DNA of 64,000 bases from an uncultured bacterium (GTDB taxonomy: Bacteria > Muiribacteriota > Ozemobacteria > Ozemobacterales > Ozemobacteraceae): NCBI GenBank assembly GCA_964474705.1, contig CAYYUI010000005.1:41965-105964 (forward strand), read 5' to 3'. The position numbers were made by a program, and so were the translations under genes. The notes under the pieces were generated by a model, which was not told the DNA's origin, did not search any database, and worked only from the letters and a program-made list of their open reading frames with translations. Each line of letters opens with the position of its first letter. Position 1 is the stretch's first letter. This document shows, one piece after another, positions 5,104-53,585 of the stretch.

Positions 5104-5850
5104 CTAGAGAATTCGCAACAGTTTATGAACTTGCGGAATCCATCTCACCTGATGAAAATGTGGCTGAAACAGTTGAATCCAGCTGATGATCGTGCCGGTA
5201 TCCCAGTCACTGATATGGGCGGGAAAAAGCGCACAGGGCTGAAGAATCAGGGTGTACTCTTCCGGTTGGAGCCCGGTGATCATTCCCAGAAGTTTTTCTG
5301 GATCGTCGTTCACGTCAATTGCGAGTCGAAAATATGTGTTCTCCGGTGTCGAAGCTTCGATTATCTTTTCCAGTGTCCGACTGCAGCGCAGTGTGTTTCT
5401 GGCTGTTCCGCAGTTGAGATCGATACACCAGTGATCGACCAGACCTGACAGTTTCAAATAGCTTTTGATCGGGGCACCCGCCGTTTGTACGAATGTAGCC
5501 AGACAGTTCTTTTTGAGAATCTGCAGCATGTCTTCGAGAAACTCTGGCTGATGCAAGGGTTCGCTGCCGATAAAAGAGATGCAGAAAAAATCTTTGAGAG
5601 GATAGGTGTCGGAAAGCAGTTGAAAAAGCCTCTCTGCTGAGACCGGGTTGCGGGCATACTGATTTTTTGCTCCAGGCAGGGTTCGCAGAACGAACGTTCT
5701 TTCGTCGGCAGGCTTGTCGTCAAATCTGATGAACAGCTGCATTGTGCCTACAAACAGCCCTTCACCCTGTATCGAGGCAAAAACCTCGCTGATGTTACCC
5801 TTTATTCTTGTCAATTTCTTTTCCCAGGGTTCTGAATAATTCATGTTCAT
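5104..5850 (-). CDS. QueE-like (7-carboxy-7-deazaguanine synthase fold) protein lacking the radical-SAM CxxxCxxC motif
   Basis: N-terminal ISEVFASIQGEGLFVGTMQLFIRF aligns with the QueE signature (EMFQTLQGEGxxxGxPxxFIRLxGC), but the Cys triad is replaced by DDKPADE. Later IGSEP and LQP...H-K-LL-I blocks also match QueE. Confidence 0.55.
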   Translation of the reverse strand: MNMNYSEPWEKKLTRIKGNISEVFASIQGEGLFVGTMQLFIRFDDKPADERTFVLRTLPGAKNQYARNPVSAERLFQLLSDTYPLKDFFCISFIGSEPLHQPEFLEDMLQILKKNCLATFVQTAGAPIKSYLKLSGLVDHWCIDLNCGTARNTLRCSRTLEKIIEASTPENTYFRLAIDVNDDPEKLLGMITGLQPEEYTLILQPCALFPAHISDWDTGTIISWIQLFQPHFHQVRWIPQVHKLLRIL

Positions 5851-7822: not shown

Positions 7823-7823
7823 G

Positions 7824-12295: not shown

Positions 12296-12802
12296 ATGGC
12301 AGACAAAATTATGTCCGACAGCCAGAATACCATTCTCTCAGGGAACCCCCCGGCGAAGCCCGGCGGTTTTACCATGCCCGAACTGCTGATCACCATTCTG
12401 CTGCTCGCGATTCTCTTTACACTGACTATTATTTTTTCCAGTGGCCTGAACCAGTCGAAGAAACTCCGCGACTACAGTATCGCGGTTGCTCTGGCACAAC
12501 AGGCGCTCGAAATTGCCAGATCTGCACCGTTTTATCTTCTCGATGATGCCGATGCCGGCAGAAACAGTGTCGAAACTGACCTGAATACCGCCTCCGACAA
12601 CAGCGACCAGCTTTCTCCCGATTTTGAATCAGGCGGCATCAGATATCGGCGTGAAGTTGAAATAGGCGATGTGATGGCGGTTGAAGACAATAAACGTCCC
12701 ATCGGTCTTAAGCTGATCAAAGTCACCGTTGACTGGAAACCCCTCGACGGCGGGAAAGCAGAACCTTTCGTAGTCACCTCAACGATTGCCAATATGAACT
12801 GA
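12296..12802 (+). CDS. prepilin-type N-terminal cleavage/methylation domain protein (pilin/pseudopilin-like)
   Basis: GFTMPELLITILLLAILF class III signal with Glu+5, after an unusually long ~24 aa leader. Confidence 0.7.
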   Translation: MADKIMSDSQNTILSGNPPAKPGGFTMPELLITILLLAILFTLTIIFSSGLNQSKKLRDYSIAVALAQQALEIARSAPFYLLDDADAGRNSVETDLNTASDNSDQLSPDFESGGIRYRREVEIGDVMAVEDNKRPIGLKLIKVTVDWKPLDGGKAEPFVVTSTIANMN

Positions 12803-12804
12803 TT

Positions 12805-13548
12805 ATGATAAACAAAAAACGCTTGTCATTGGCTGATTCACATGGTTTCACCATAGTCGAAACCCTGATGGCCGTCGTGCTTTCAACGATGATTCTGTTT
12901 TTTGCCTACCGCGTTTTCTTTTCGCAGACTGAGATGGTCACCAGGTCGATTGAGTTTCTGCACGTAAATGAAGGTTTCCGCAAGGTTATGACCTTTATGG
13001 GTGATGATATTCGTGAATCGACTACCATTCTCAAACCGGTTCCGGTGTTTGGCGATAAAGTCGCTTCACAGACAACCATGCCAGGGGTAGTTCTCCACCT
13101 CCAGAGTTCCGAGCTTGATCCCCAGATTCCTTTCAACAGCCCATTAGGAGGGCAGATTGCGGTGCGCCGGCAGGTGGTTTACGAACTTGAAAAGATGCCC
13201 AACCCAGAATCTCAGACTATTCCACGTTTCAAGCTGATCAGAACTGCAAGTTTCGAAGAAAAGCCCGGCCAGAAAAATTCCCAGCGCCAGGTGCTTGTTG
13301 AAAATATCCGCGATCTCGTCATCTATAGGACTGTCCGCAAGCCGTTCAAGCCCGCCAATATCAGTTCTTCCGGTGACAGTATGGTGCTGTCGCAGCCTTT
13401 GAGCCAGTCAGGCACCGGCAACAGTCTGGTTCATGTGAGAATGGTTCTTGAAAGAACCCGCAAAGAAACCGAAACCGGCCAAGTATACAACATTACTATG
13501 AATACAAGTTTCTATAAGCGCGGAAAAGAGATTTTCAAAAACCCATGA
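12805..13548 (+). CDS. minor pilin/pseudopilin-like protein (PilW/GspJ-like)
   Basis: HGFTIVETLMAVVLSTMILF prepilin N-terminus; 2-nt gap from upstream gene, ATGA overlap with downstream gene. Confidence 0.7.
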   Translation: MINKKRLSLADSHGFTIVETLMAVVLSTMILFFAYRVFFSQTEMVTRSIEFLHVNEGFRKVMTFMGDDIRESTTILKPVPVFGDKVASQTTMPGVVLHLQSSELDPQIPFNSPLGGQIAVRRQVVYELEKMPNPESQTIPRFKLIRTASFEEKPGQKNSQRQVLVENIRDLVIYRTVRKPFKPANISSSGDSMVLSQPLSQSGTGNSLVHVRMVLERTRKETETGQVYNITMNTSFYKRGKEIFKNP

Positions 13549-15899
13549 GCAACACATTTAACAAACGCCGCCGTGGCTCCGGATACCTCATCGTGTTGGG
13601 GTTTGCCGGTCTGTTGCTGATTTTCTTCGCTATTTTCTTCCGGGTCAAGTCGGGTCATCAGCAGCTGCAGTCAAAAGATGTGCGCCGCTTCGTGGCCTCA
13701 AATCTGGGTGAAGCCGCCTTGAACTGTGTTATCGCCGAGTTGAACGCCAACCGCGCCTTCAATACCCATCGCTATTTTCGCGACAAGGAAGATTACTACT
13801 GGAACACACCAGTGAAAAAGCGTGAATCGCTGATCGGCAAGATCGACGGCATCAGCCTTTCCGGCGTCAGCTCAGGAATTTACAGCGGCTCATCGGATGC
13901 CGGTGAATTCAAGGCAAAATTTGCCCAGGTCTGGGGTGCCCGCGAAAATTCAAAAACCGAGACTCTTCTTGAAGCCCAGATGTATACCCGCGCTGAAATC
14001 GTCGTTAAAGTTGGTTCCGGCTGGGGTATCAATGAACAAACCTGCCGCAAGATCACGGCGTTGATCGAGCGGCGTTATCCGGCCGGCGAAAGCCTTCTCT
14101 ATGACGGCGAATTTCTTGATCTCGGCGCTCTCGGCCCTTACCCGGGCCGCGAAAATCAACTCCGTCAGGGGCGTCTCTATGGCTATCACTGGATAACCTC
14201 TAATACTGCCGGCGGAGCCTGCCGTGGTTCAGAACTTCTCGACATGGAAAAGATTGAAACCCCTGGCTTCATAAGAGCTTTGAAAGATACAAGAATTTCT
14301 TTCGCCGATAAATCGAGCATGACCCTTAATGCAGCGAATGATTCGATGAAGATCAGTAATTTTCAGGCTCAGGACGGATTTCTGCTCGATGGTGCGCATG
14401 GAGCCCACCCGATCAAACTGGCGAGATTGCCTCGAGAACGTATCAAGGCTACCGCAACCCGCTATCGAAAAACATACGGCCTGACCATTGACGAAAAGAC
14501 TCTGCCGGCCGGTAATTACAAGAATCCATATGATACCAGGAGCCGTTATGTCGATCTCAATTTTGCTGATTTCAAGGTTGTCAAGGCCATAACCGCGAGC
14601 AGTTCTGCCGGAACATCCACAGGCACCGGAACCGGAACCGGAACGGGTACTGGAACCAATACCGGCGGCGATGGCGAAGAAGAGGTTGACGAAACCGATT
14701 ACAACCTCACTTCTGATGAACCTGAAGTTATCCGCAAGCTGAAAGGCGACAAAATCCTAATTTATGCGGAAGTTCCCTTGCGCATCTGGGGTTGCCCCGA
14801 CCGCACCGTTACTATTTACAGCACCCGGGATATCGTTATTGCCGGCGATTTCAACCAGAACCCCCGCACCGTCCAGATCTATCAGGACGATTCCCTGATG
14901 AAATATAAATATGACATCGAAAATGGCAAAGGCCGCAACAAGGTTGGAGCACTGATAATGTCTGAAGGCCGGGTTCTTATCGACATGTCGCGGCCGACCC
15001 TTTTTGCCAGAAACGAAATCAAACCGTTTTTTCTTTATTGTCTGGCGCAAGCCATGCATCCATCAACTCCAGAGATCGAAGCAGAGATCAAAACACTTCT
15101 CTGTCCGCTCGACCCGGATAATCGCAAATCCCTGATCGGCCTCGGAGAACTCGGCGCTGATGGCAATTTTGAAGCTCGCTTCGGTGCCATGGCTTTTTTG
15201 TACAACAATAAAGAACTGAACGGCGGCGGCCTCTATCAGTCAAAAATGGAAGATGTCATCAACTTTTTCACCCCGGGAGTCGGTGACAAACCAAGGTTTG
15301 GCATCAATGACGAAAAGACCCGCACCGCAGTCATCGAAGCCCTGAAAACAGCCGTCAGAAGTGCCGGCGACTTGACGATGACCGAACAGGACCAGATTTT
15401 CGATATGGCCTGGAACCAGGCGGTTGTCGAAGAAGAGACCGCACCGCTGCCGAATTCGGGCGCGATGGGTATGATGCGCTGGCTTTTCGAAGAAGCAAAA
15501 AAAGACCCCAATGATGCCATCTATTATCCCGAAATTACCATCAACGCAGGTCTGGTCAGTTCAGCCTGCCGCTCGGCACGCTGGCAGATCGGGAACTCAC
15601 CTGACAAGGTCGATGATGAAATCGGCAACGCCGGCAGCGGTGAATATATGCGCGAACCCGGATTCATCATTCAGCGGGTGTTTGGTGGCGTCATCAGACT
15701 GGCTGCAAAAAAAGCCGAATATTTCATTTCAGGAGCCCATACCGGCAAAAATATTCTGCGTCGCCGCCTCTGGGACCCAACCAACCTGCGTAATGAACCT
15801 TTCAAGCCTCTTGAAGCACCGGCAGTTCATAACCTGCTGACCTTTTCTGAAGAATCGATCAGCGTTCGTGAATACGACAATTTCAGCGGTAAAAACTAA
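13545..15899 (+). CDS. giant (784 aa) GspK/PilX-like minor pilin with large C-terminal extension
   Basis: N-terminus RRGSGYLIVLGFAGLLLIFFAIFF (pseudopilin-like hydrophobic segment without Glu5, as in GspK/PilX). Internal (GT)n low-complexity linker; translationally coupled to the two pilin genes. Confidence 0.5.
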   Translation: MSNTFNKRRRGSGYLIVLGFAGLLLIFFAIFFRVKSGHQQLQSKDVRRFVASNLGEAALNCVIAELNANRAFNTHRYFRDKEDYYWNTPVKKRESLIGKIDGISLSGVSSGIYSGSSDAGEFKAKFAQVWGARENSKTETLLEAQMYTRAEIVVKVGSGWGINEQTCRKITALIERRYPAGESLLYDGEFLDLGALGPYPGRENQLRQGRLYGYHWITSNTAGGACRGSELLDMEKIETPGFIRALKDTRISFADKSSMTLNAANDSMKISNFQAQDGFLLDGAHGAHPIKLARLPRERIKATATRYRKTYGLTIDEKTLPAGNYKNPYDTRSRYVDLNFADFKVVKAITASSSAGTSTGTGTGTGTGTGTNTGGDGEEEVDETDYNLTSDEPEVIRKLKGDKILIYAEVPLRIWGCPDRTVTIYSTRDIVIAGDFNQNPRTVQIYQDDSLMKYKYDIENGKGRNKVGALIMSEGRVLIDMSRPTLFARNEIKPFFLYCLAQAMHPSTPEIEAEIKTLLCPLDPDNRKSLIGLGELGADGNFEARFGAMAFLYNNKELNGGGLYQSKMEDVINFFTPGVGDKPRFGINDEKTRTAVIEALKTAVRSAGDLTMTEQDQIFDMAWNQAVVEEETAPLPNSGAMGMMRWLFEEAKKDPNDAIYYPEITINAGLVSSACRSARWQIGNSPDKVDDEIGNAGSGEYMREPGFIIQRVFGGVIRLAAKKAEYFISGAHTGKNILRRRLWDPTNLRNEPFKPLEAPAVHNLLTFSEESISVREYDNFSGKN

Positions 15900-23011: not shown

Positions 23012-23803
23012 ATGAATCAGCAGAAATTTGCATATTTGAAGAGCATTTTTTGTGGCTATGTAGACTCTTTTCGCGATGAAAAAGGCAGTCTGCATCCGAT
23101 GCTGCAGCTAAAATACGACCATTCTCTGCGCGTAGCCGATGAAGCGCGTGAGATCGCCTCAGACCTTGGCTGGGGCAGCGAAGATATCAGGCTTGCAGAA
23201 ACTGTCGGGCTTTTCCATGATGTCGGCCGCTTTTCGCAGTTTCAGGAATTCAAAACCTATTATGACCCGAAATCTGTTAATCACGGTTGTCGAGGCTTTG
23301 AGGTTCTGCAAAAATCCGACTGGCTCACCGGCCTCTCCGATGCCGAGAAGTGCACGATTCTCGAGGCGGTGCGCCTGCATAACTGTCACCTGTTACCGGA
23401 GAATCTTTCCCCGCAGCTGGAGCGCCATGTAAATCTGGTCAGAGATGCCGACAAGCTCGATATTTTCTTCGTTCTCAACAATGCCATCGAAGAAAGACGG
23501 CTGAATGACAACCCCGGAATAATCTGGAACCTGCCTCGAAATATGCCGCCCAGCCGGGTGATCCTCGACGACCTTTGCAATCATCGGCAGGCCCGCTACG
23601 AAAATGTCAAATCAGAAGCAGACTTTTGTCTGCTGCAACTCTGCTGGATCTACGATCTTAATTACCTGCCTACCATCAGAAGAGTAGCCGAAAGAGAAAT
23701 TGTGACGCGGATTGCCAGTACACTTCCGGTTCACGATGATATCAACGCTGCTCTGCAGCATCTGCACGACTTTTTGCATAAATCCGTCTCCGGGCAGCAG
23801 TAG
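23012..23803 (+). CDS. HD-domain phosphohydrolase family protein
   Basis: H...HD...D metal-binding pattern (YDHSLRVADEA...GLFHDVGRF...DADKLD). Confidence 0.7.
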   Translation: MNQQKFAYLKSIFCGYVDSFRDEKGSLHPMLQLKYDHSLRVADEAREIASDLGWGSEDIRLAETVGLFHDVGRFSQFQEFKTYYDPKSVNHGCRGFEVLQKSDWLTGLSDAEKCTILEAVRLHNCHLLPENLSPQLERHVNLVRDADKLDIFFVLNNAIEERRLNDNPGIIWNLPRNMPPSRVILDDLCNHRQARYENVKSEADFCLLQLCWIYDLNYLPTIRRVAEREIVTRIASTLPVHDDINAALQHLHDFLHKSVSGQQ

Positions 23804-25004: not shown

Positions 25005-28000
25005 TTATTTGGCTACTTCACCTTCGATGGTGCCTGATGGACGCTGACTGAGAATGTGGTTGAACTGTTCGTTGTAATCCTGGAGAATGCGCAGAATGCC
25101 GCGTTTGATCGACAGCAGTTCGTCGCTGGCCGGGCTGACTTCGTGGTTCTTTTTGATTTCTTCTTCAATGGCGTCTTCAAGTTTTTTGACTTTGTCGGTC
25201 ATGATCGGCAGATACTTGCTGACTATTTCGCGCTGTTTCGGGAACGGCAGTGATTTCCAGTATTCATTGTAGACGCTTCTGATCAGGTAAATACCCATGG
25301 TGTTGTTCTTGAGATAGTCGAACAGCTGGGTGATGGTGCGGCCGATCGGCTGCGGTTTGTCCTGTTGATACCAGAGCTCATACTGCACCAGCTCATTGTT
25401 GTATTCGATACCGTATTTGCTCTGAACCGTATCAGCGATAAGCTCATAGCGCAGTAGCAGGTAGACCATGTAATGCTCTTCGAGCTTTTTGGCCGGAATC
25501 AGGCCGTAGCTCGACCAGAGAACCGGGTAGGCATCGTTAGTAAGAAGAGCGTGGCAGTTGATTTTTGCGGTGTTCTGGCGATAGAGATTGTGCCATTGCG
25601 TTATGGCGCTGATATTATACGGAGCGATGCCGTGTAGAGTCTGCAGCAGACTGATTTCATAAGGGTTGCGGGTCGGAGCCACGGTTACGCCGATGTCTCC
25701 TTTGCGCAGCGCATCCTTGATTTCTTCAGAAAGTTTGCTGTTCTCGTCGGCAATGCCGAGGGTGACGATATTCATGCGCTGTGGCTGGTTGTTGCCGCGA
25801 TCGTTCATAGTGATCAGCGGTGTCGACTGGTTCATCATGCTTTCGACCAGACTCTTCTTGAAGCCCTTGCGCACTGAGTCCTTCCAGTGAATGAAATCTT
25901 CGATGCCACCGAACAGGCGGCGCTCGATAATACCGCGGCAGTATTTGACGATTTCTTTTTCGAGTGAATTGCCTTCAGGATTGGTGAACTTTTCCCAGTT
26001 TTCCTTGAGGTTGATCTTGACCAGAAAGTCACCTTCGATGTCGTTGTTTGAAAGGTCGCCGAGCAGATATTTGTAGAACGGCTCGATATCGCGATCTTCA
26101 AAAATATAGGTTCTGATGAAATCCTGAACTTTCGAATAAGGCTTGATGCGCTCGAGGCAGTGTTCATACTGTCGTTCGATCATGCCATCCTTGGAAATCT
26201 GCGCCAGCTTTGTCGAGAAAACCTCGACCTGTTTGCGTATCGACTGAGACTGCACGTTCAGGTATTTAAGAAAATCTTCAGCACATGAAATACAGAACAT
26301 TTCATATTCCATGTCGACGGCTTCCTTGGCTTCTTTCAGCAGTTTATCGCGTTCGTCGTTGATGTCGGTCATGCGCAGCACAGTGCCGAGTTCCATGAGC
26401 TTGCCGCCGAGGCCGGCAAAGCCACCGAGCTTTTCCTTGAGCCGATTGGCTATTTCACGGTATTCACGCTGTTCTTTTTCGAGTTTGCCCTTGATTTCCT
26501 GGACTTTACGCGACAGAATTTCGCGGGGGTAGCGGGTCAGATATTTTTCGAAGGCGACGAGAAAGTCGATCGCAATGTGAGCGCCAAGGTCGGGGTTATT
26601 GATAATTTCGATAACCTTGTCAAGAAGATGCTCGCCTGCTTTGACGGCATTCTGTTCGAAATTGACCCTGACCTTGGCTCTGATCTCGTCTTTTTTGACG
26701 CGGTTCTGATTCATTTCATCGATCTGGCGAAGAATGAAAGCCGAGGCAGATTCGCCTTCCTTCTGTTTGTTCACGGTGCGCAGCGAATGGAACATCGGGT
26801 TGTCCCAGTATTGCTTGCGATCGATGATTTCTTTGGTCATCATGAACAGGCCTTCAGGAGTGAGATCGATTTTGGTCGGGTTGTTTTCGGCGAATTCCTG
26901 AACCATGCTGTCGATAAGAATTCGGTCTACCGAGAGTTTCAGCCAGTAGGTGACATCCATCGAGAGTTTGTAGGTATAGAGGTCGCGGATGACGTCGAGT
27001 GGGTAATAGAAGCTCTTGAAACCGGCTGAGCTGAAGCATTTCAGCTGCTTGCCCTCCAGGTCTGAACTGTTTTGCCCGAGAATCTGTGAAGCGTTGTCGA
27101 GCATCGAGTTCTGCGCCTGGCGAAGCTGGGTGGCAAGTTTTGTAAAAATCAGCTCGGAGGCGATGCTGTAATAGGTCGGGATGTCGTCCTGATTGCTGGT
27201 GCCAAGCAGGTAGCACTGATCGAAAGGCGGTTCTTCACTGACCGAACCGTAAGTGGTTGTGTCGTTGCTCTTGCCGATCGGGCCGTAGTTGACCATAAAC
27301 TTGTTGCGGCGGTCCTGGCTGATAATGTCTTTGGCGGTACGGGTCGGCGGAAACTTCTCTTTGTTCATGAAATAGAAAGTTTCTACGAGTGAAGCATAGC
27401 CATTGCCTTCGAGACGCCCGGTTGAATTGACGTTCGGGTCGATGGAAATCTGGGTGAAGGCTTCCGGAGTCAGCTGGATGCCAACGATGGTCGGCTTGCC
27501 TTTGCCGCCTGAGAGCTGATAATAAGCCATTTTGAGCAGGTAGGCGATGTCGAGAAACATGCCGGCGCCTGACCCGCCGCACAATGAACCGACGACGTAG
27601 AATTCAGGGGTGAGAATCTGGCCCTGCTTATTGGTCAGGGGAACGATGATGTCGTCCTGATTGACATTGCTTCGGGCCATAATTTTGCTCATCTTGGCCT
27701 TGATCTGCTGAAAAATCTTCTGGATATCGACAAAAATGCCGAAACGGCCGGTAAACCTGAACTGGTGAGCTCCCTGGCTTATCTGACCGATGTGATGTTT
27801 CAGTTTCTGCGGGAACCATTCGTAGAGATAATTGTAGGTTTCAGAATCCAGATTTCCAGTTATCTGGCCGGCATTCTGGATGTTGATCTGATGATACTCA
27901 CTTTCGGTGAGTTTTGAGCCGGTCTTGGGATCGTCTTCAGGCTGGCTGGCGTCGAAAATGTCTGTGTCGATGCAGAGAAGATCGATAAAATCAGGCAGCG

Positions 28001-28157
28001 CCGGTTCGCCTTTTCCTGAGATTGCATAGGCCTTCTTGATCTGGGGGCTATTGAGAAAAGTTTCTTTGAAATTGATCAGTGATTTTTTGCCGGTACCCCC
28101 GAGCCCTACAATCAGAGCAGGGTTGAGTGCAATGCGGTTTTCATAGTTTGTGCTCAT
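25005..28157 (-). CDS. giant tubulin/FtsZ-superfamily GTPase-like protein (Tubulin_2-type N-terminal domain + ~800 aa helical/coiled-coil extension)
   Basis: T1 loop ALIVGLGGTGKK, FtsZ-like CIDTD (NTD) motif, T4 loop VVGSLCGGSGAGMFLD, in the spacing expected for the tubulin/FtsZ fold. Probable start is ATG at 28157 with GGGAG RBS; the ORF track start is 28238. Confidence 0.6.
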   Translation of the reverse strand: MSTNYENRIALNPALIVGLGGTGKKSLINFKETFLNSPQIKKAYAISGKGEPALPDFIDLLCIDTDIFDASQPEDDPKTGSKLTESEYHQINIQNAGQITGNLDSETYNYLYEWFPQKLKHHIGQISQGAHQFRFTGRFGIFVDIQKIFQQIKAKMSKIMARSNVNQDDIIVPLTNKQGQILTPEFYVVGSLCGGSGAGMFLDIAYLLKMAYYQLSGGKGKPTIVGIQLTPEAFTQISIDPNVNSTGRLEGNGYASLVETFYFMNKEKFPPTRTAKDIISQDRRNKFMVNYGPIGKSNDTTTYGSVSEEPPFDQCYLLGTSNQDDIPTYYSIASELIFTKLATQLRQAQNSMLDNASQILGQNSSDLEGKQLKCFSSAGFKSFYYPLDVIRDLYTYKLSMDVTYWLKLSVDRILIDSMVQEFAENNPTKIDLTPEGLFMMTKEIIDRKQYWDNPMFHSLRTVNKQKEGESASAFILRQIDEMNQNRVKKDEIRAKVRVNFEQNAVKAGEHLLDKVIEIINNPDLGAHIAIDFLVAFEKYLTRYPREILSRKVQEIKGKLEKEQREYREIANRLKEKLGGFAGLGGKLMELGTVLRMTDINDERDKLLKEAKEAVDMEYEMFCISCAEDFLKYLNVQSQSIRKQVEVFSTKLAQISKDGMIERQYEHCLERIKPYSKVQDFIRTYIFEDRDIEPFYKYLLGDLSNNDIEGDFLVKINLKENWEKFTNPEGNSLEKEIVKYCRGIIERRLFGGIEDFIHWKDSVRKGFKKSLVESMMNQSTPLITMNDRGNNQPQRMNIVTLGIADENSKLSEEIKDALRKGDIGVTVAPTRNPYEISLLQTLHGIAPYNISAITQWHNLYRQNTAKINCHALLTNDAYPVLWSSYGLIPAKKLEEHYMVYLLLRYELIADTVQSKYGIEYNNELVQYELWYQQDKPQPIGRTITQLFDYLKNNTMGIYLIRSVYNEYWKSLPFPKQREIVSKYLPIMTDKVKKLEDAIEEEIKKNHEVSPASDELLSIKRGILRILQDYNEQFNHILSQRPSGTIEGEVAK

Positions 28158-28276
28158 TAAGACGCTCCCGGAAGAGAATGATTTAAGGCAGTATAACAAT
28201 TTTACCTTACCCCGGCAATCTGTTATACTGAATTTCATTCAGGCCATTTATTCAACCCACTTTATGGCAGGAGAAA

Positions 28277-29224
28277 ATGATGAAACCACTTGAATTGAGC
28301 TGCATAACCGCGATCTGGAAATCAGCCCTTGCCCGGCTCGACGAGAACATGGCCGGCATTGGCAGTGACCTGCAGTTGTGGTTTCCATGGAGCGGTATCT
28401 GGCGCGGTCATGATCGCAACGGCAGTCTGCCGCCAACCGACCTGCCCGAAGATCTTGCTAAGCCCGGTGTCAGCAGATTTGGCGGTCGCTTCTGGAAAGC
28501 TTTTCCGATAAATGGTACCAGCTGGCTTGTAAGTGTCAGGGCTCCGGTATCAGCCACCCCTGAAATGGAAAACTGGGAATTGCCCTCTCATGTTCAGGAA
28601 TCTCTGCGGATTTTGAGTGATTTTGTCCGCCTGGAGTGCCTGCTCGGTCTGACGATGAAAATTCTTGAAAACCAGTCGCACGAACACGTCGGTCATTGGG
28701 ATCGCGTTCGTAACCTGAGCGTCGCCATCGGCAGTGAAATGGGGCTCTCACCCCGCGAACTCGCCGATCTTGAACTTGCCGCCATGCTGCATGACATTGG
28801 CAAGGTCGGACTTCCTGACGAACTGCTCGACATGGCCGGTCCCCTTTCACCCGAAGAACGCAAGCGTGTCGAATCGCATTCGCTTGTCGGCTCTGCGATG
28901 ATTCGTGAAATACCCGGAATGGAAATGGTCGCCGAAATCGTTCTCGGGCATCACGAAGCGATCGACGGCAGCGGCTATCCACGCGGGCTGAAATTCGAGG
29001 AAATACCGTTTGGGTCGCTCGTTATTGCGGTTGCTGACGCCTTCGATGCCATGACTCATTACCGGCCATATGCAATCGAGCGCACTTACCACGAAAGTTT
29101 CGATGAAATGAAACGCGAAAGCGGAAAATATTCTCCCGAAGTCATGGCAGCCCTCGAAAAGGTATTGCGCCGGCTCGGCATACTTGAAACCAAGCCTCTT
29201 GTCGGAACCAGTGAAGACTGGTGA
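28277..29224 (+). CDS. HD-GYP domain protein (putative c-di-GMP phosphodiesterase) with N-terminal uncharacterized sensor domain
   Basis: LHDIGKVGLPDELL...HHEAIDGSGYPRGL (HD and GYP motifs). Confidence 0.8.
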   Translation: MMKPLELSCITAIWKSALARLDENMAGIGSDLQLWFPWSGIWRGHDRNGSLPPTDLPEDLAKPGVSRFGGRFWKAFPINGTSWLVSVRAPVSATPEMENWELPSHVQESLRILSDFVRLECLLGLTMKILENQSHEHVGHWDRVRNLSVAIGSEMGLSPRELADLELAAMLHDIGKVGLPDELLDMAGPLSPEERKRVESHSLVGSAMIREIPGMEMVAEIVLGHHEAIDGSGYPRGLKFEEIPFGSLVIAVADAFDAMTHYRPYAIERTYHESFDEMKRESGKYSPEVMAALEKVLRRLGILETKPLVGTSEDW

Positions 29225-39931: not shown

Positions 39932-41266
39932 ATGTTAAAGACACAAGTTCAGGAACTGGAAGCCAACAAAGTTGCATTGACCGTCGAAGTCGAAAAGGAA
40001 AAAGTCAATGCTGCCTATGCAAGCTTTTATAACCGTGCCGCCCGGTCGGTGAAAATCCCCGGGTTTAGACAGGGCAAGGTTCCCAAAGCGGTTCTGGTTA
40101 AATTTATCGGCCCGGAAGCAGTTCGAGAACAGATCGAAGAAGAACTGGTCCAGGAAGTATATCCGCAGGCCATCCGGGAAACCAAACTGCACCCGGTCAG
40201 CCGCTTCGAACTTGAGGAATCGAACCTTCAGGAAGGCGCCCCATTTACTTTCAAGGCGGTTTTTGAAGTCAGACCGAAACTTGGCGACTTCAATTACAAG
40301 GGTTACACCGCTCAGGTTCAGCATGAAATCGTCGATGAAGAAAGCGTGCAGAAGGTTCTCAGTCAGGTTCGTGAACAGCAGAGCAAGACAGAAACCGTCG
40401 AAGATGGTGAACTGTGCGTCGGCGATTATTTTTCAGCCAACGTTCAGGTTGCTCATGAGGGCCAGATCGATGAAGAACTTTCCGATGAAAAAGCAGCCCA
40501 CAAGCTGATGGAAAATGACAAAATGTTCGCCGCATGCCTTGGTATGAAGGTTGGCGAAACCAGAACCTGGCAGCACAAGGTAGAAGGCGAAGCCGAAGCA
40601 AATTCCAAATATTTCGGCAAGACCCTCGATTATACCGTAACCCTCAATCGTATTTCCCGCCCGACTCTGCCCGAACTCAATGACGAATTTGCTAAAAAGG
40701 TCGGCGATTTCGAAAACCTGGCGGCTCTCGAAGCCAAGGTCAGGGAAGACCTGAGCGAACGCGCCAAATATGATGCCGAAGAACGGGCTTTCGATGAAAT
40801 TCTCAGCCAGATCATCGGCGACTATCAGTTCGATGTTCCTGAGTCAATGGTTCAGAGCACAATCGACTTCTTCATTCAGGGGCTCGATCGCCGCTGGCGC
40901 CAGTTTGGCACCACTATCCAGGACTACCTGCGCAATTCCGGCAAAGATGTCAACGAATTCCGGGAAACTTTCCGGGAAAGAGCCGTGCGTCAGACCAAAA
41001 CCATGCTGCTGATCGACTCGATCGGTAACAAGGAAAATATCGATGTCACCGACGCCGATTATCGTGAAGAAATCGAAAAGCGCGCCAAAGAATACAATAT
41101 GCCGGTTGAAAAGCTGCTGAGCACCCTCGCAGAAAATGATGGCGAAGAAAACGTAAGATTTTCGCTCAGAAGTCAAAAAATTCGTGACTTTATGCTAAAA
41201 AATAACCAGATTAATTACGATATGGTTAAAGAAGCCGATGATAACAAGGGGGAAGCTGAAGCGTGA
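39932..41266 (+). CDS. tig: trigger factor
   Basis: N-terminal ribosome-binding domain with GFRQGKVP motif; 444 aa; upstream of clpP-clpX. Confidence 0.9.
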
Positions 41267-41871
41267 CTCTCGTTCCAATAGTAATTGAACAAAGCAGCCG
41301 TGGCGAACGGGCGTTCGACATCTATTCGCGTCTATTAAAAGACCGCATTATTTTTCTGGGCGGCGGAATCGATGACGGCATGGCAGATCTTGTCGTAGCT
41401 CAGCTCCTCTTCCTCGAATCTGAAGATCCTGAAAAGGATATTTCGATTTACATCAACAGCCCGGGTGGCGTGGTAACAGCCGGCATGGCGATTTATGATA
41501 CGATGCAGTACATCAAACCTGATGTCAGTACCATCTGCATCGGTCAGGCTGCCAGTATGGGTGCTCTGCTGCTTGCGGCAGGCGCACATGGCAAGCGCTA
41601 CGCCCTTCCCAATTCACGCATCATGATTCATCAGCCTCTGGGCGGGGCACAGGGTCAGGCCAGCGATATCGAAATTCAGGCTCAGGAAATCCTGAGAATG
41701 AAGGATATGCTGAACGACATTCTGGCGAATCACACGGGTCAGCCTCTCAAGCGCATCAAGAGAGATACTGATCGCGATTTCTTCATGTCTTCGAAAGAAG
41801 CCAAGGAATATGGTCTTATCGACGAAGTAGTTCAGCGAAAAGTAGTTGCAGCAAAACCCAACGAGGAGTAA
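41263..41871 (+). CDS. clpP: ATP-dependent Clp protease proteolytic subunit ClpP
   Basis: Ser-His-Asp catalytic context ([19 protein letters not shown]), 202 aa. Confidence 0.95.
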
Positions 41872-41873
41872 GC

Positions 41874-43115
41874 ATGCTTTCTAAGACCCCTCAGTTCCGT
41901 TGTTCTTTCTGCGGAAAGAGTCAGGATCAGGTTCGCAAGTTAATTGCCGGGCCCGAGGTCTACATTTGCGACGAGTGCATTGGCCTTTGTAACGAGATTA
42001 TTCTCGAAGAACTCGATGACGACGGCCCTCTGGTAATGCAGAATGCGCTCAAGCCCAAGGAAATCGCCAAGATTCTCGACCAGTATGTGGTTGGCCAGGA
42101 TCAGGCGAAAAAGATTCTCTCGGTGGCTGTTTACAACCACTACAAGAGAATCACCCTCGAGGAATCACGTCGCGATGATGTTGAAGTACAGAAGTCAAAT
42201 GTGCTTCTCATCGGGCCTACCGGTTCGGGCAAAACCCATATTGCCCAGACGCTCGCCAAGCTGTTGAATGTTCCGTTCTGTATCGCCGACGCCACCACGC
42301 TCACTGAAGCCGGTTATGTCGGTGAAGACGTCGAGAGCATCCTGCTCAATCTGCTGCGGGCCGCTGATTATGACGTGCAGAAAGCTGAACGCGGAATTGT
42401 CTACATCGATGAAATCGACAAAATCGCCCGCAAGAGCGAAAACGTTTCGATTACCAGAGATGTATCGGGTGAAGGCGTGCAGCAGGCTCTTCTCAAACTG
42501 CTCGAAGGCAAGGTTGCTCATGTGCCGCCGCAGGGTGGCCGCAAGCATCCGCATCAGGAATACATACAGCTCAACACCAAGAATATCCTTTTCCTGCTCG
42601 GCGGGGCATTTGAAGGGGTTGAAAAGCTTATCGAAGCCAGATCGTCGACCAAAACCATGGGGTTCGGTTCGACTCCGGTTCTAAAAAGCGAACGCCGCGT
42701 CGGCGATCTTCTCAGAGATATCATGCCCGAAGACCTGTTGCGTTTTGGCATGATCCCTGAATTTATCGGTCGTGTGCCGGTAATCGCCACTTTCAACAAT
42801 CTGGCCGTTGAAGATCTGGTCAAGATTCTCACTGAACCCAAAGATGCACTGATCAAGCAATACGCCCGCCTGCTGCGCATGGAAGGCGTCGAACTCGAAG
42901 TGACTCCCAAGGCTCTGCAGGCGATTGCCCGCAATGCCATTCAGCAGAACACCGGTGCCCGCGGCCTGCGCCGTATCATCGAAGATCTGATGCTCGACCT
43001 GATGTATGATATCCCATCTGATAACAATATCAGCAAGGTTATCATTCATGAGCGCTGCGTCGAGAAAAAGGAACCCTACCAGATCATTTTCAAGGTCGAA
43101 AGCCAGATCGCCTGA
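41874..43115 (+). CDS. clpX: ATP-dependent Clp protease ATP-binding subunit ClpX
   Basis: C4 zinc finger (CSFCGK...CDECI), Walker [12 protein letters not shown]-like loop, sensor motifs. Confidence 0.95.
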
Positions 43116-49724: not shown

Positions 49725-49742
49725 TTAGAGCTGGCCTTCAAA

Positions 49743-49785
49743 GGGGGCTGTTTCAGAATCACTGAAACAGCCCCCTGATTTTTTT
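49743..49785 (+). terminator. rho-independent terminator (copy 1 of repeated GGGGCTGTTTCA hairpin)
   Basis: GGGGGCTGTTTCAG-AATCA-CTGAAACAGCCCCC followed by T7. Confidence 0.7.
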
Positions 49786-49961: not shown

Positions 49962-51788
49962 ATGAAAGAATTTGAACTCGATCAGGAGCTGATTCCGCTG
50001 GCGCGCAAAACCCTCGGAATCTCAGACATGTTCGTCTGTCTCGATGAGACTGTGCTTGACAACCTTGTCGGCCTTGCCGGCAAACTGCATGTCTACGAAG
50101 ATCATGAACTGGTAATAACCGCCGGCAGCGCCTCTGATTTCTTTCTCGTTGTCATTAAAGGCGAAGTATCGGTTTCGATCGGCCAGGAAGAGAACTTTAT
50201 CGAAATTGCCAGACTTGGGCCGGGCCATATGGTTGGTGAGATCGCCATGCTGCGCGACGAGGCGCATTCATACTCGTATTTTGCCCGTGGGCGACTGGTG
50301 GCTCTCTGTTTTTCGTCATCGTTATTCTATGACCACATTCTAACGATTCCGGGAATAAACATTCCTTTGCCGCAGATTGTCGGCAGAAGATTTCAGGAAT
50401 CACCTGGTTATCAGGTTTCCATGGAAAATCGCAAAGAGATGCCGCTTCCCGATATTGGCCTCATGAAGCTTTTGCCTGCAGATTTTTTGCAGAGAAATCG
50501 TCTGTTTCCAGTTAAACTCATCGATAATCGTGTTGCAATCGGCTATTGCGAAATAATGCATCGTGACCTGCGTGAGTCTATAGCCCGTCTTCTGCCTGAT
50601 TATGAAGTTAGAACCATATTTTTTTCCACTGAATATTTCAATAGGGTCATGCAGAGATTTCTGGGTGAGCCGACAGCCGTTCAGGTTGGTAAAAGCCCCG
50701 GAAACCGGAGCGTAGATGATCTGCTCAGGCTGCTTGTCGCCGCCGGTGGTTCTGATCTATACCTTTCTGCCGGGCAGATCCCAAGATGGCGCATCGATGG
50801 AGAGATTCAAGAGATTCCCGACGCCGAAAAATTCGGTTCAGAAGAAGTTCTCGATCTTCTCAGACCGGTTGCCAGAACCGAGATTCTTGCCTCTTTCGCA
50901 GATTCATGCGATGAGGATTTCGCCTATTCAATGAGCTGCGGCTATCGTTTCAGAATCAATCTGCTGCGCGATCACAATGGGGTCAGCGCTGTCTTTCGTC
51001 ATATTTCGACTGAAATACATTCACTGGAAACGCTTGAATTGCCTGACATTCTCACTAAATTCTGTGAGATGCCAAAGGGGCTGGTGCTGGTGACCGGGCC
51101 GACCGGTTGCGGCAAATCGACGACTCTCGCTGCGATGATCGACTGGATCAACCGCCGCCGCCGCCGCCATATTCTGACTATCGAAGATCCAATCGAGTTC
51201 GTTCATGGCAGTCAACAGGCTCTGATTAATCAGCGTGAGGTAGGCATTCATACCCGTAGTTTTGCCAAGGCTCTGCGTGCCGGTTTGCGTGAAAACCCGG
51301 ATATTGTCATGGTGGGCGAAATACGTGATAACGAAACCATGGCAATGGCCCTTGAAACCGCCAATACCGGCCATCTGGTCTTTGCTACACTTCATACGGC
51401 TACGGCACCGAGCACGATCGACCGGGTAATTGACAATTTTCCGCCCGAAGGGCAGAACCAGGTGCGTATGTTTCTCGCCGACAACCTGATCGGCGTTGTC
51501 TGTCAGACTTTGTGCCGACGCATCAGTCGCGGTTGCGTTCCAGCCTTTGAAATCATGGTAATGGACCCGGCCATGGCCAATCTCATCCGTACCGGAAAAA
51601 CCTACATGCTGCCGAACGCCATGCTCACTGCCCAGGCAAATGGCAATCGTCTTCTCAACGACGATCTCTGCAATCTTGTGCGCAATGGCACGATTACTCT
51701 TGCTGAAGCTATGAATAAAACGCGCGACAAGACAGAACTCGAACGCAAGCTTGGTGAAATTGCCCATCCCCCGGAACGGAAAGACTGA
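49962..51788 (+). CDS. PilT-family type IV pilus retraction ATPase fused to N-terminal cNMP-binding-like and GspE_N-like domains
   Basis: PilT motifs: Walker A GPTGCGKST, EDPIEF, NPDIVMVGEIRD, His box GHLVFATLHT, C-terminal AMANLIRTGKTY. N-terminal ~120 aa beta-roll with GEIAML (cNMP-binding-like), then a T2SSE_N-like segment. Confidence 0.7.
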   Translation: MKEFELDQELIPLARKTLGISDMFVCLDETVLDNLVGLAGKLHVYEDHELVITAGSASDFFLVVIKGEVSVSIGQEENFIEIARLGPGHMVGEIAMLRDEAHSYSYFARGRLVALCFSSSLFYDHILTIPGINIPLPQIVGRRFQESPGYQVSMENRKEMPLPDIGLMKLLPADFLQRNRLFPVKLIDNRVAIGYCEIMHRDLRESIARLLPDYEVRTIFFSTEYFNRVMQRFLGEPTAVQVGKSPGNRSVDDLLRLLVAAGGSDLYLSAGQIPRWRIDGEIQEIPDAEKFGSEEVLDLLRPVARTEILASFADSCDEDFAYSMSCGYRFRINLLRDHNGVSAVFRHISTEIHSLETLELPDILTKFCEMPKGLVLVTGPTGCGKSTTLAAMIDWINRRRRRHILTIEDPIEFVHGSQQALINQREVGIHTRSFAKALRAGLRENPDIVMVGEIRDNETMAMALETANTGHLVFATLHTATAPSTIDRVIDNFPPEGQNQVRMFLADNLIGVVCQTLCRRISRGCVPAFEIMVMDPAMANLIRTGKTYMLPNAMLTAQANGNRLLNDDLCNLVRNGTITLAEAMNKTRDKTELERKLGEIAHPPERKD

Positions 51789-51819
51789 CGAGAGAGGGCA
51801 GCACTTTTCAGGAGGCCTT

Positions 51820-53061
51820 ATGAAAAAACCTTTGGTCGCTGAAATGATCAGCGTCGGAACCGAACTCCTTCTTGGCGAAATTATCGATACCAACGCGGCA
51901 TTTCTCGGTGAGCGTCTTCGCGACCTCGGTATCTTTGTATATCGTCGCCAGACTCTCGGTGATAACCTTGAACGCCTGGCTTCTTCGATAAAAGATGTTC
52001 TTGAAAGGGCTGATCTGCTGATTCTCTGCGGCGGGCTTGGGCCTACTGACGATGACTTGACGCGCGAAGCAATCGCAGGCGCATTGGGCGAAACGCCTCA
52101 TGTCGACGCCGGGCTGCTAAAAGACCTTGAAGAGAAATTCCAGGCCAGAAAACGCGTCATGGCCGAAGGAAACCGCAAACAGGCCTGGCTTATCGACAGT
52201 GCCAGAGCTCTTGCCAATCCATACGGCACTGCACCGGGCTGGTTTGTCGAAAAGGGCGGAAAAATTATCATCGCCCTGCCGGGGCCGCCTTCCGAGCTTA
52301 CCAGAATGTGGACGGAACAGGTCGAGAAACTGTTGCCCGAATCGGGCCGGGTTCTCTACCACCGCACTCTTCATACCATCGGCATCGGCGAGTCTGATCT
52401 TGCCGAACGCATTAGAGATTTTACCCGGCTTGAATCTCCGGGAATCGGCACTTATGCCCGTAACAGCGGCGTCGATGTCAGAATTGCCGCCAGTGCCGGC
52501 AATTCAACTCAGGCGCAGGCGATCGCCGACCCGGTCATCCGTGAGATAGAACTGCTTCTTGCCCCCTGGATTTTCGGCTGTGACGACGAAACAGTGGTTT
52601 CAGCCATCAAAAAGATTCTCGAGACCAGGCACCAGACTTTTGCCTGCCTGGAATCAGTGACCGGCGGCAGTCTTGCCGCTGAGATCACTGATTGCCCAGG
52701 TATCAGCAGCTGTTTCAGTGGTTCATTGACCGCTTATACCGCGCAAGCGAAAATCATGGCAGGTGTCGATGCCGCGCTTATCGAGCGTTATGGCGTAGTT
52801 TCTGCTGAAGTCGCTGTTGCTATGGCCGTCGCGGCGCGCAAAATGTTCAAGGCCGACTGGGGTATGTCTACTACTGGTGTTGCCGGCCCTGCAAGTCTCG
52901 ATGGTAAATCTCCGGGAACCGCCTGGGTTGCCGTGTCCGGCCCTGCCGGTGATAAGGCGGCATTCGTGGATTGGCCCGGAGACAGGGCTATGGTGAAGAA
53001 ACGTGTCTGCCGGACCGTTTTCCAGACTTTTTTAGATCTCCTCAAAGGTCGCACCGGGTGA
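51820..53061 (+). CDS. cinA: CinA (competence/damage-inducible protein A; MocF-like N-domain + nicotinamide-nucleotide amidase C-domain)
   Basis: AEMISVGTELLLGEIIDTNAAFL N-terminal signature, C-terminal CinA domain (ESVTGGSLAAEIT); AGGAGG RBS before ATG at 51820. Confidence 0.85.
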   Translation: MKKPLVAEMISVGTELLLGEIIDTNAAFLGERLRDLGIFVYRRQTLGDNLERLASSIKDVLERADLLILCGGLGPTDDDLTREAIAGALGETPHVDAGLLKDLEEKFQARKRVMAEGNRKQAWLIDSARALANPYGTAPGWFVEKGGKIIIALPGPPSELTRMWTEQVEKLLPESGRVLYHRTLHTIGIGESDLAERIRDFTRLESPGIGTYARNSGVDVRIAASAGNSTQAQAIADPVIREIELLLAPWIFGCDDETVVSAIKKILETRHQTFACLESVTGGSLAAEITDCPGISSCFSGSLTAYTAQAKIMAGVDAALIERYGVVSAEVAVAMAVAARKMFKADWGMSTTGVAGPASLDGKSPGTAWVAVSGPAGDKAAFVDWPGDRAMVKKRVCRTVFQTFLDLLKGRTG

Positions 53062-53585
53062 TGGAAGCAACCATGCGTCTGTTCTTTGCTTTGCAGGTTC
53101 CCGATACCGTCTGTGCGCAACTGGCAGCGTTTTCGCAAACCCTTGCTGAGCCATGGCGCCCGGTATCGGCCGAAAGGATGCATATTACTCTTGCCTTCAT
53201 GTCCGAAGTTCCGGAAAGCCGTCTGGCCGAAATCATCGACTTTGGAAAAAAAGCTGCCCTGGAAGTTGAGACTTTTGTCGTTTCCCTTGCGGAATGTGGC
53301 TGTTTCCCTGAAAGAGGGAATCCGAACGTTTTGTATGTAAAGATCGAAGGTGGAGCATGGTTCATTAAACTTGCTGAGGGTTTGCGCCGCCGACTCGGGC
53401 CCCTGGCGGATCAGAAAGAGGTGAAGCCTCATCTGACGCTGGCCAGGTGCCGTCATGGTCGCGCTGAAAAATTCGAACACCGGTTCGCGGGCGGCTGGAA
53501 AGTCAGCGGGTTTTGTCTGGTAAAAAGCGACCTGACCTCAGAGGGAGCCAGATACGAGGTGTTGCAGGAATTTTCTTTCGGGTGA
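53061..53585 (+). CDS. thpR: RNA 2',3'-cyclic phosphodiesterase ThpR/LigT (2H phosphoesterase)
   Basis: Two HxT/S motifs (HITLAF, HLTLAR); ATGA overlap with cinA stop. Confidence 0.75.
   Translation: MEATMRLFFALQVPDTVCAQLAAFSQTLAEPWRPVSAERMHITLAFMSEVPESRLAEIIDFGKKAALEVETFVVSLAECGCFPERGNPNVLYVKIEGGAWFIKLAEGLRRRLGPLADQKEVKPHLTLARCRHGRAEKFEHRFAGGWKVSGFCLVKSDLTSEGARYEVLQEFSFG

Follow-up and report, generated by a model that had tools for sequence, protein, structure and literature searches.

The fusion ATPase encoded in the window (the whole 64-kb stretch of DNA analyzed here) combines, in this order, a CNB domain, an ND1-like half-domain, a disordered linker, and a complete PilT-family core (Table 1). 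We favor, with moderate confidence, the reading that this protein is a hexameric retraction motor of the PilT clade in which the CNB domain has replaced the c-di-GMP-binding ND0 domain and ND1 was kept, and that the pocket of the copy in the window has been re-tuned or has become ligand independent. The architecture is not a chance arrangement, because all three domain matches lie above curated thresholds and the fold was confirmed structurally. The original prediction of a CNB-like beta-roll, a GspE_N-like segment, and a PilT core was borne out by profile, sequence, and structure comparison, with Pfam cNMP_binding, T2SSE_N, and T2SSE all matched above threshold, and its suggestion that retraction may be regulated by a second messenger or a partner is compatible with these findings. 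The gene calls for the open reading frame were identical on two Logan contigs, and the N terminus of the protein lines up with Met1 of its orthologs in the alignment. No paralogue of either half of the fusion was found within the window.

Table 1 Features of the fusion ATPase, its gene, and the surrounding DNA
Feature	Residues	Position in window	Strand	Basis
ComEC		22-2226		
Pseudopilin cluster		12296-15899		
Intrinsic terminator of upstream Lnb_N gene		49742..49776	+	15-bp stem, 9 GC pairs, T-run
Whole gene, 608-aa CNB-ND1-PilT fusion ATPase		49962..51788	+	ORF, ATG start; Pfam/NCBIfam domains
CNB fold domain (N-terminal helices, 8-stranded beta-roll, alphaB/C helices)	~1-160	49962..50441	+	
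Phosphate-binding cassette (PBC), GEIAMLRDEAHSYSYFA	92-108	50235..50285	+	alignment columns
ND1/MshEN_C-like alpha/beta domain	~165-237	50454..50672	+	Pfam PF05157, family profile
Disordered linker, length varies across family	~236-250	50667..50711	+	models, alignment
PilT-family core (N-terminal PAS-like domain and RecA-like CTD)	251-592	50712..51737	+	TIGR01420
Walker A, GPTGCGKST	379-387	51096..51122	+	motif position, family alignment
Asp box, EDPIE	408			
Walker B, DIVMVGEIRD	447			
His box, TGHLVFATLHT	469			
AMANLIRT, counterpart of PilT AIRNLIRE	537-544	51570..51593	+	aligned to PaPilT AIRNLIRE
cinA and thpR/ligT (context only)		51844..53585	+	Pfam MoCF_biosynth, CinA_KH, and CinA; LigT_PEase

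The motor core

The C-terminal part of the protein matches the NCBIfam profile TIGR01420 (pilT_fam) with 401 bits against a cutoff of 319.1, covering profile positions 2 to 343 of 343, and Pfam T2SSE at residues 319 to 540 with 154.8 bits. The PilB equivalog TIGR02538 (141 bits against a cutoff of 675.65) and the GspE equivalog TIGR02533 (154 bits against 630.25) were not reached. In the PDB comparison, the top matches of the core were PilT of P. aeruginosa (3jvu, 2.2e-84) and of Aquifex (4e-82), with PilU scoring below PilT (1.5e-65; 225 bits versus 287 bits). The Walker A motif, the Asp box, the Walker B motif with its catalytic Glu, and the His box are all present in columns that are invariant family-wide, which for Walker A include G379, P380, T381, G382, G384, K385, and T387 in the family alignment. 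The C-terminal PilT-type ATPase with GPTGCGKST and Asp and His boxes that had been described from the sequence is thus upheld by both TIGR01420 and the motif positions. The AIRNLIRE motif sets PilT apart from PilU and PilB; its counterpart in the fusion, where the sequence from residue 537 reads AMANLIRTGK, is identical at five of eight positions, and the family consensus reads AxANLIREGKTH. Judged by profile scores, the motor core belongs with PilT/PilU, probably in the PilT clade, and not to the PilB/GspE clade, and homology predicts that it drives retraction.

The N-terminal module and its tether

Pfam cNMP_binding (PF00027) matches residues 44 to 124 (E 3.6e-12; 46.5 bits against a gathering threshold of 27.5), and structure comparison recovered the features that mark the CNB fold, namely a beta-roll of eight strands, a PBC helix, and the alphaB/C helices. 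The cNMP-binding-like fold that had been proposed is therefore seen in profile and structure comparison alike.

The extension and secretion ATPases PilB, GspE, and MshE run from ND0 through ND1, a flexible linker, and ND2 to the ATPase. In the fusion, Pfam PF05157 (MshEN/T2SSE_N) matches residues 166 to 237 (E 3.2e-6; 27.5 bits against a gathering threshold of 23.1) over profile positions 16 to 87 of 90 only. The family profile matches residues 90 to 160 of the PilB N domain (7lko), 59 to 126 of M. xanthus PilB, and 65 to 128 of MshE (5htl), covering only residues ~60 to 160 within the N domains of PilB and MshE, and the modeled secondary structure of this part is beta-beta-alpha-beta-alpha. 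The resemblance to the GspE N-terminal domain in the original prediction holds for the ND1/MshEN_C half and fails for the ND0 half, which is absent; the CNB domain sits at the position of MshEN_N, the c-di-GMP-binding helices. The window protein and 90 relatives lack the 24-residue c-di-GMP motifs defined for MshEN (PMC5013675), in the strict form as well as in the authors' relaxed form. Because only the ND1/MshEN_C half is present and the motifs are missing from all 91 sequences, binding of c-di-GMP in the manner of MshE was ruled out.

In PilB and GspE, ND1 docks to the platform and a flexible linker of ~30 aa separates it from the motor (PMC8389850). In the fusion, pLDDT falls below 50 at residues 236 to 248 in both models, the same region is gap-rich in the family alignment, and the pTM of the whole-protein model is 0.57 versus 0.84 for the N-terminal module alone. 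As modeled, a flexible disordered tether joins the N-terminal module to the motor. Docking of ND1 to the platform through a PilM-type partner is proposed by analogy, since the ND1 domain of EpsE in the EpsE-EpsL complex gave no detectable sequence match to the ND1-like domain.

Relatives of the fusion and reuse of its module

Relatives were gathered by an exhaustive HMMER search together with a full-length search; a word-seeded search with the N-terminal 250 aa as the query missed them. More than 110 protein clusters with the same architecture were found in the Riflebacteria/Ozemobacteraceae, the Kiritimatiellae, and one Myxococcales MAG. Some relatives are 92% identical across the N-terminal 250 aa, and one ortholog (P0001) is 94% identical to the window protein. 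Among the matches listed, at least two loci were confirmed in genome contigs, one in a Riflebacteria MAG and one in the Myxococcales MAG. By these matches, the fusion is common in metagenomes and is not unique to the window.

Metagenomic ATPases of ~900 aa (P0154, P0174, and P0150) contain two tandem copies of the CNB-ND1 module and are found at E values of 1e-14 to 1e-8 with the N terminus of the window protein as the query. These proteins match the full T2SSE profile with 350 to 368 bits and are of the PilB/GspE type, not the PilT type. Such duplicated reuse supports a portable regulatory module for the ATPase superfamily. A wider reading, possible but tentative, is that CNB and ND1 together constitute a widespread wiring of cyclic mononucleotides, not c-di-GMP, into the motors of type IV pili and type II secretion systems. 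In PilT-type members the module would gate retraction post-translationally by controlling motor-platform docking, and the pocket of the Ozemobacteraceae clade, with its invariant His and its Tyr, would have been re-tuned to another ligand.

State of the phosphate-binding cassette

The Glu of the PBC contacts the ribose 2'-OH of the ligand. The Arg of the PBC makes the charge-neutralizing contact to the cyclic phosphate (PMC10959531). In the window protein, Gly92 and Glu93 are retained, Arg is replaced by His102 (codon 50265-50267), and Ala is replaced by Tyr104. Replacement of the canonical RSA arginine had been claimed at the outset, and the alignment agrees: His102 occupies a column in which 55 of 91 family sequences have Arg, the remainder having His (21), Tyr (12), Phe (2), or Asn (1). 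Of the 91 family members, 55 have the canonical R[ST]A[ST] and 88 the GE pair. Because the pocket across the family is of the canonical form (G-E...R-[ST]-A-[ST]), the CNB-ND1-PilT proteins were most likely cNMP responsive ancestrally, with cAMP or cGMP as the input.

Within the clade of the window protein, His102 is invariant (21/21, with Arg in 0/21), and Ala is replaced by Tyr at position 104 in two thirds of the members, the window protein included; outside the clade this Ala is invariant. In a tree of the PilT part alone, the His sequences fall into one clade and the Tyr/Phe sequences into a second. On this distribution, the clade of the window protein has lost Arg secondarily, and the second clade lost it independently to Tyr or Phe. 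With His in place of the phosphate-clamping Arg and Tyr in place of the adjacent Ala, the window protein has probably lost canonical cAMP/cGMP binding. Constraint in the His clade is similar for the CNB domain and the ATPase (pN/pS of 0.127/0.709 versus 0.101/0.688), which points to a CNB domain still under purifying selection; the selection test was made on a 79%-identical ortholog, and its dN/dS values are only approximate because dS was saturated. Such strong conservation implies a sensor for a different small molecule or a ligand-independent interaction domain.

Ligand-free CNB-homology domains exist in KCNH channels, and the CNB domain of the His clade could similarly be a structural or interaction module, with regulation only through partners bound to CNB and ND1. 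This seems rather unlikely to us, in that the invariant His102 and the retained Gly-Glu pair argue for selection on the pocket and not on the fold alone, and CNB domains devoid of the Arg are able to accept different ligands, for example the nucleosides bound by trypanosome PKA-R (PMC10959531). We regard it as improbable that the window protein is still a cAMP- or cGMP-gated PilT in which His102, protonated or via a water, contacts the cyclic phosphate, possibly more weakly or in a pH-dependent manner. Gly92, Glu93, and the remaining PBC scaffold are kept in an intact fold under purifying selection, the sister clades are canonical, and a His could in principle hydrogen-bond the cyclic phosphate. 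Nevertheless, the charge-neutralizing Arg (PMC10959531) is replaced throughout the clade, a bulky Tyr stands at an otherwise invariant Ala in most of it, and the second clade independently turned to Tyr or Phe, which are unable to mimic Arg. The pattern of Arg loss in two clades suggests release from cNMP binding and not a conservative replacement. A re-tuned or ligand-independent pocket on a PilT-clade motor remains the reading that we prefer.

Genomic context

The terminator of the upstream Lnb_N gene is predicted to set the fusion gene apart as a transcription unit of its own, in whose 185-nt leader no Rfam element (riboswitch or leader RNA) was found. Directly downstream lie cinA and then thpR, as first described and as the Pfam domains of both genes confirm. 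No convincing terminator was found between the ATPase gene and cinA, and the two downstream genes are probably cotranscribed with it, yet stand outside the system. The adjacency of cinA is conserved only inside the His clade, and the locus of the 79%-identical ortholog (P0002) lacks thpR, so that a family-wide functional link to these genes was rejected. Context in general was not conserved across the loci compared and therefore names no partner. Counting in favor of our reading, the gene for one ortholog of the Arg clade directly follows a partner-switching module and a Che cluster, and a class III cyclase is encoded 8 kb from it. The pilin operon that had been placed 34 kb away was recovered as a pseudopilin cluster about 34 to 37 kb upstream, recognized by a GFTIVE motif and by a TIGR02532 prepilin domain that scores 24.1 bits (cutoff 16.3); no PilM, PilC, or PilB gene was found near the fusion gene in the window.

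ND1 domains are otherwise typical of extension and secretion ATPases, cinA follows directly in a probable cotranscript, and ComEC is encoded in the window, all of which would suit an ATPase for extension, assembly, or DNA uptake (for example, a competence-related one) in place of a retraction motor. We consider this very unlikely, as the core scores well above the cutoff as PilT/PilU and far below those of PilB and GspE (630 to 676 bits), carries the PilT-type A-x-x-NLIR-x motif, and adjoins cinA in the His clade only, with ComEC 48 kb distant. A Pycsar-like anti-phage effector whose CNB domain senses cCMP or cUMP is essentially refuted, given that PADLOC matches span only the CNB domain and are marginal (E 8e-4 to 7e-3), that the neighbors have no PADLOC matches and include no adjacent Pycsar cyclase or other defense gene, and that a complete PilT serves as the output domain in a housekeeping context that is syntenic within the Ozemobacteraceae.

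Proposed mechanism and significance

In the retraction motor that we favor, a PilT-clade ATPase would have gained, at its N terminus, a flexibly tethered regulatory module of two domains. ND1 would provide the docking surface for the cytoplasmic platform (PilM/GspL type) or for another partner, and the CNB domain would relay its ligand state via its C-terminal helices, which are continuous with ND1. That state would determine if the motor engages the pilus base and in what way, thereby gating retraction. In the Ozemobacteraceae-type lineage of the Riflebacteria, the CNB domain may sense another small molecule or act as a ligand-independent interaction domain; both the identity of the ligand and the direction of regulation are what we infer.

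How cells choose between extending and retracting their pili remains a central question. The motors are known to receive direct input from c-di-GMP, which acts on extension ATPases of the PilB/MshE type, and from accessory proteins, among them PilZ and FimX, and cAMP is known to act on pili mainly via transcription (Vfr/CRP). If the proposed mechanism is true, a PilT-type motor that has a built-in cyclic-nucleotide sensor together with a PilB-like domain for docking would let a second messenger switch retraction directly; if the module is inert, the gene would be merely a PilT paralogue with a decorative N terminus. The natural variants (the Arg clade, the His/Tyr clade, and the Tyr/Phe clade) make the question of the ligand pocket testable, and the family gives a concrete entry point to motility and adhesion in little-known phyla (Riflebacteria and Kiritimatiellae). 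In a literature search that took in few subscription journals, no publication on a CNB-PilT fusion was found.

Comparison with known systems

The PilT structures of P. aeruginosa (3JVU/3JVV), Aquifex aeolicus (2EWV), and Geobacter (6OJX) align end to end with residues 251 to 592 of the fusion at E values of 2e-84 to 5e-76, sharing all of the catalytic motifs and an AIRNLIRE-like motif. Canonical PilT, of ~345 to 400 aa, begins at residue ~250 of the fusion and is without the N-terminal sensor and ND1; the fusion differs from it further by a Cys in place of the usual Ser in Walker A. The c-di-GMP receptors V. cholerae MshE (5HTL), Thermus PilF, and X. citri PilB (7LKM) have the same logic of a sensor/docking N domain, a flexible linker, and a hexameric motor, and the ND1/MshEN_C subdomain of ATPases of the MshE/PilB/GspE type is homologous to ND1 of the fusion. 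However, the fusion carries a CNB domain instead of the ND0/MshEN_N four-helix bundle and both c-di-GMP motifs, and its motor is of the PilT clade, whereas theirs are of the PilB/GspE clade.

Compared with canonical CNB domains (PKA-R, PKG, HCN/SthK/MloK1 channels, CRP/Vfr/GlxR, and the CNB-EAL protein Bd1971), the window protein has His for Arg and then Tyr for Ala, and the output of the fusion is a pilus motor ATPase. The PKA-R proteins of trypanosomatids (6FTF, 6FLO, and 6HYI) contain CNB domains that lack the Arg and bind purine nucleosides (PMC10959531). In their pocket, Ala is changed to Glu at PBC position 4 (GELE...), Arg to Thr or Asn, and Ala to Val, whereas the window protein keeps Ala at PBC position 4 (GEIA...) and has His-Ser-Tyr. 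A trypanosome-type nucleoside pocket is not favored, the diagnostic Ala-to-Glu change being absent, and a nucleoside ligand is not to be assumed for a CNB domain that does not share the trypanosome substitutions. The ~900-aa PilB/GspE-like ATPases share the CNB-ND1 module with the fusion, but in them it is duplicated and is mounted on a motor of the PilB/GspE type.

Architecture of the fusion ATPase

The open reading frame at 49962 to 51788 (+) begins with ATG and encodes 608 amino acids, as originally predicted, and the same protein is predicted on two independent metagenomic contigs. Pfam annotation places its cNMP_binding, MshEN/T2SSE_N, and T2SSE domains all above curated thresholds. In a PDB sequence search, the closest solved structures are the PilT proteins of P. 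aeruginosa (3JVU, 2.2e-84) and Aquifex (2EWV, 4e-82). Because residue ~3 of the solved PilT proteins aligns with residue 251 of the window protein, residues 1 to 250 constitute a genuine N-terminal extension. An antisense open reading frame of 290 amino acids (51021 to 51893, -), lying mostly within the ATPase gene and running beyond its stop at 51788, is most likely a shadow ORF and no gene.

Features of the window and of the 608-residue protein
Feature	Position	Strand	Evidence or remark
ComEC-like competence channel	22-2226	-	
NAD-dependent DNA ligase LigA	5795-7873	-	
Prepilin cleavage/methylation ORF	12296-12802	+	TIGR02532, 24.1 bits vs 16.3
Pseudopilin-cluster ORF	12805-13548	+	GFTIVE motif
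784-aa pseudopilin-cluster ORF	13545-15899	+	matches no family; TGTGTGTGTGTGT low-complexity stretch
HD/HDOD protein	23012-23803	+	
HD_5 (HD-GYP-type) protein	28277-29224	+	
Trigger factor-ClpP-ClpX	39932-43115	+	
Intrinsic terminator, strong	49742-49776		closes upstream Lnb_N gene
cNMP_binding	residues 44-124		Pfam, 46.5 bits vs gathering 27.5
MshEN/T2SSE_N	residues 166-237		Pfam, 27.5 bits vs gathering 23.1
T2SSE ATPase	C-terminal part		Pfam, above curated threshold
PilT/PilU family core	residues 251-592		NCBIfam TIGR01420, end to end, 401 bits vs cutoff 319
Walker A	residue 379		present
Asp box	residue 408		present
Walker B	residue 447		present
His box	residue 469		present
AMANLIRT, counterpart of PilT AIRNLIRE	residue 537		present

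Given a family alignment of 91 sequences, AlphaFold2 modeled residues 1 to 250 confidently (pLDDT 89.2, pTM 0.84), with disorder confined to residues 237 to 250, and Foldseek supports a CNB fold for the N-terminal module (E about 2e-9). On the strength of the model and the Foldseek match, the beta-roll adopts a true CNB fold. The CNB-like beta-roll of the original prediction is thus recovered by profile, model, and structure comparison alike, whereas the segment described there as GspE_N-like holds up in part: a domain is present, corresponding to the C-terminal ND1/MshEN_C half only. When a family profile of residues 140 to 240 was run against PDB sequences, it matched GSPII/MshEN domains in their C-terminal alpha/beta half alone (X. 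citri PilB N-domain, 90 to 160; M. xanthus PilB, 59 to 126; V. cholerae MshE, 65 to 128). The c-di-GMP site of MshE consists of two 24-residue motifs within residues 9 to 61 (PMC5013675), and the window protein and 90 relatives lack both the strict pattern and the relaxed version used by the authors. The N termini of PilB and GspE comprise ND0, a four-helix bundle (MshEN_N); ND1 (MshEN_C), which touches the PilM homolog GspL/EpsL in crystal complexes; and a flexible linker of ~30 amino acids to the motor (PMC8389850). Since only the ND1 half is matched and the c-di-GMP motifs are absent, the layout in this nomenclature is CNB (replacing ND0), ND1, disordered linker, and PilT core. In the full-length model, linker residues 236 to 248 have pLDDT values of <50 and the overall pTM falls to 0.57, consistent with a rigid CNB-ND1 unit on a flexible tether to the motor.

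Distribution and gene neighborhood

Clustered at 90% identity, the proteins recovered by a full-length search form >110 clusters that have these three Pfam domains in common, at a length of ~600 amino acids and identities reaching down to 43%, with source names of Candidatus Ozemobacteraceae, Rifleibacterium, Riflebacteria, and Kiritimatiellae; their existing annotation is just "PilT/PilU family type 4a pilus ATPase." The N-terminal module is also found in a Myxococcales MAG (28% identity over residues 1 to 235), and in an exhaustive search with the N-terminal 250 amino acids, the match covers both N-terminal domains in 60 of the 150 top-ranking representatives (50% identity level). A word-seeded protein search with this query gave no hits, missing even metagenomic protein P0001, whose N terminus is 92% identical, and its negatives are unreliable for short or divergent queries. 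Some of the representatives matched in the exhaustive search are proteins of ~850 to 907 amino acids (P0154, P0174, and P0150) that carry two tandem CNB+MshEN_C modules ahead of a PilB/GspE-type ATPase, so the CNB-ND1 module is a portable unit that can be attached at the N terminus of ATPases of this superfamily. The gene for P0154 (metagenomic locus L011, 9001 to 11724) is flanked by those for a single-domain response regulator and an Hpt protein. Among the best matches to the CNB part are giant proteins with 9 to 11 repeated CNB-like stretches (P0121, 2659 aa; P0123, 2651 aa; P0128, 3779 aa), for which the analogous PDB match is a 2736-aa Toxoplasma protein (9ya0).

With no convincing terminator between the ATPase gene and cinA, the ATPase gene probably heads a transcription unit with cinA (and thpR). 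The order PNP, PfkB, TLC/MFS, HAD, GT9, Lnb_N, ATPase gene, cinA, and thpR is kept in a 61%-identical Ozemobacteraceae ortholog; thpR is absent from the locus of a 79%-identical ortholog. Neighborhoods in other clades are wholly different (a Che cluster, GroES/EL, or unrelated genes). One ortholog with the canonical Arg (P0030; metagenomic locus L003, 10001 to 11809 of a Rifleibacterium-type contig, 1 to 21809) is encoded immediately downstream of a CheA-CheW-MCP-CheB-CheR cluster and a partner-switching module (STAS, RR-SpoIIE phosphatase, and RsbW-like kinase), and a class III nucleotidyl cyclase fused to AAA/TPR is encoded 8 kb downstream of it.

The presence of ComEC-like, LigA, and trigger factor-ClpP-ClpX genes identifies the window as ordinary chromosomal core. 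Its annotated open reading frames include no cyclase, and their only pilus-related genes form the pseudopilin/minor-pilin cluster at 12296 to 15899 (+). The 64-kb window holds no second secretion-type ATPase or CNB protein, and the 5' leader of the ATPase gene has no match in Rfam. The HD_5 and HD/HDOD products may be cyclic-nucleotide or c-di-GMP phosphodiesterase-like signaling proteins. The 1077-aa product of 25005 to 28238 (-) is predicted to be a large bacterial tubulin-like protein, its N-terminal ~430 residues matching Pfam Tubulin_2 (PF13809, 177 bits) and no NCBIfam model.

The CNB pocket

The phosphate-binding cassette (PBC) of the window protein (GEIAMLRDEAHSYSYFA, residues 92 to 108) retains Gly-Glu. 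Replacement of the canonical RSA Arg, which had been read from the sequence, is confirmed by the family alignment, with His102 in the column of the cyclic-phosphate-neutralizing Arg; the next-but-one Ala is Tyr104. Arg occupies this column in 55 of 91 family members, mostly within RTAS, RSAT, or RTAT, motifs also seen in proteins proven to bind cAMP/cGMP; the others have His (21), Tyr (12), Phe (2), or Asn (1). In a neighbor-joining tree of the PilT part only, His marks a single clade that includes the window protein (13/13 sampled sequences), Tyr/Phe marks a second, independent clade (6/6), and Arg is found in every remaining sampled sequence (24/24). All 21 members of the His clade have His102 and 67% have Tyr104, whereas position 104 is always Ala outside this clade. 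Comparison with the 79%-identical ortholog gave pN 0.127 and pS 0.709 for the CNB and pN 0.101 and pS 0.688 for the ATPase, the ratios being approximate because dS is saturated. The CNB domain of the window lineage is thus not decaying. It is unlikely that the CNB of the His clade is purely an interaction domain, and there is little probability that the His102 pocket still binds a cNMP.

Proposed function and comparison with known systems

That the protein is instead an assembly or competence ATPase is improbable; the PilB and GspE equivalog models score it at 141 to 154 bits versus cutoffs of 630 to 676. A defense effector can be dismissed as highly improbable, PADLOC giving no defense-system signal. 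The best-supported reading is a PilT-clade motor that has gained an N-terminal docking domain in the style of PilB/GspE, in which a CNB sensor takes the place of the c-di-GMP-binding ND0; homology is the basis for the putative retraction activity, platform docking, and ligand identity. At the family level, cNMP would control engagement of the retraction motor. In the window lineage, the pocket has probably lost canonical cAMP/cGMP binding yet is maintained, and would be either re-tuned to another ligand or ligand independent.

The sequences of the fusion proteins and their Pfam domains are already in public databases. Full-text searches of a literature collection with few subscription journals turned up no account of a fusion of the CNB-PilT or CNB-MshEN-ATPase type, and the text of the MshEN paper (PMC5013675) mentions neither PilT nor cNMP. 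None of the components is new in itself, and CNB domains fuse promiscuously with other domains. Even so, a retraction motor that receives a cyclic-mononucleotide input directly, and whose pocket varies naturally, would usefully extend what is known of pilus regulation and would be easy to test. The nucleoside pocket of trypanosomatid PKA-R hinges on an Ala-to-Glu change at PBC position 4 that the window protein does not share; in that system, Arg-less CNB pockets are functional, with purine nucleosides as the ligand.
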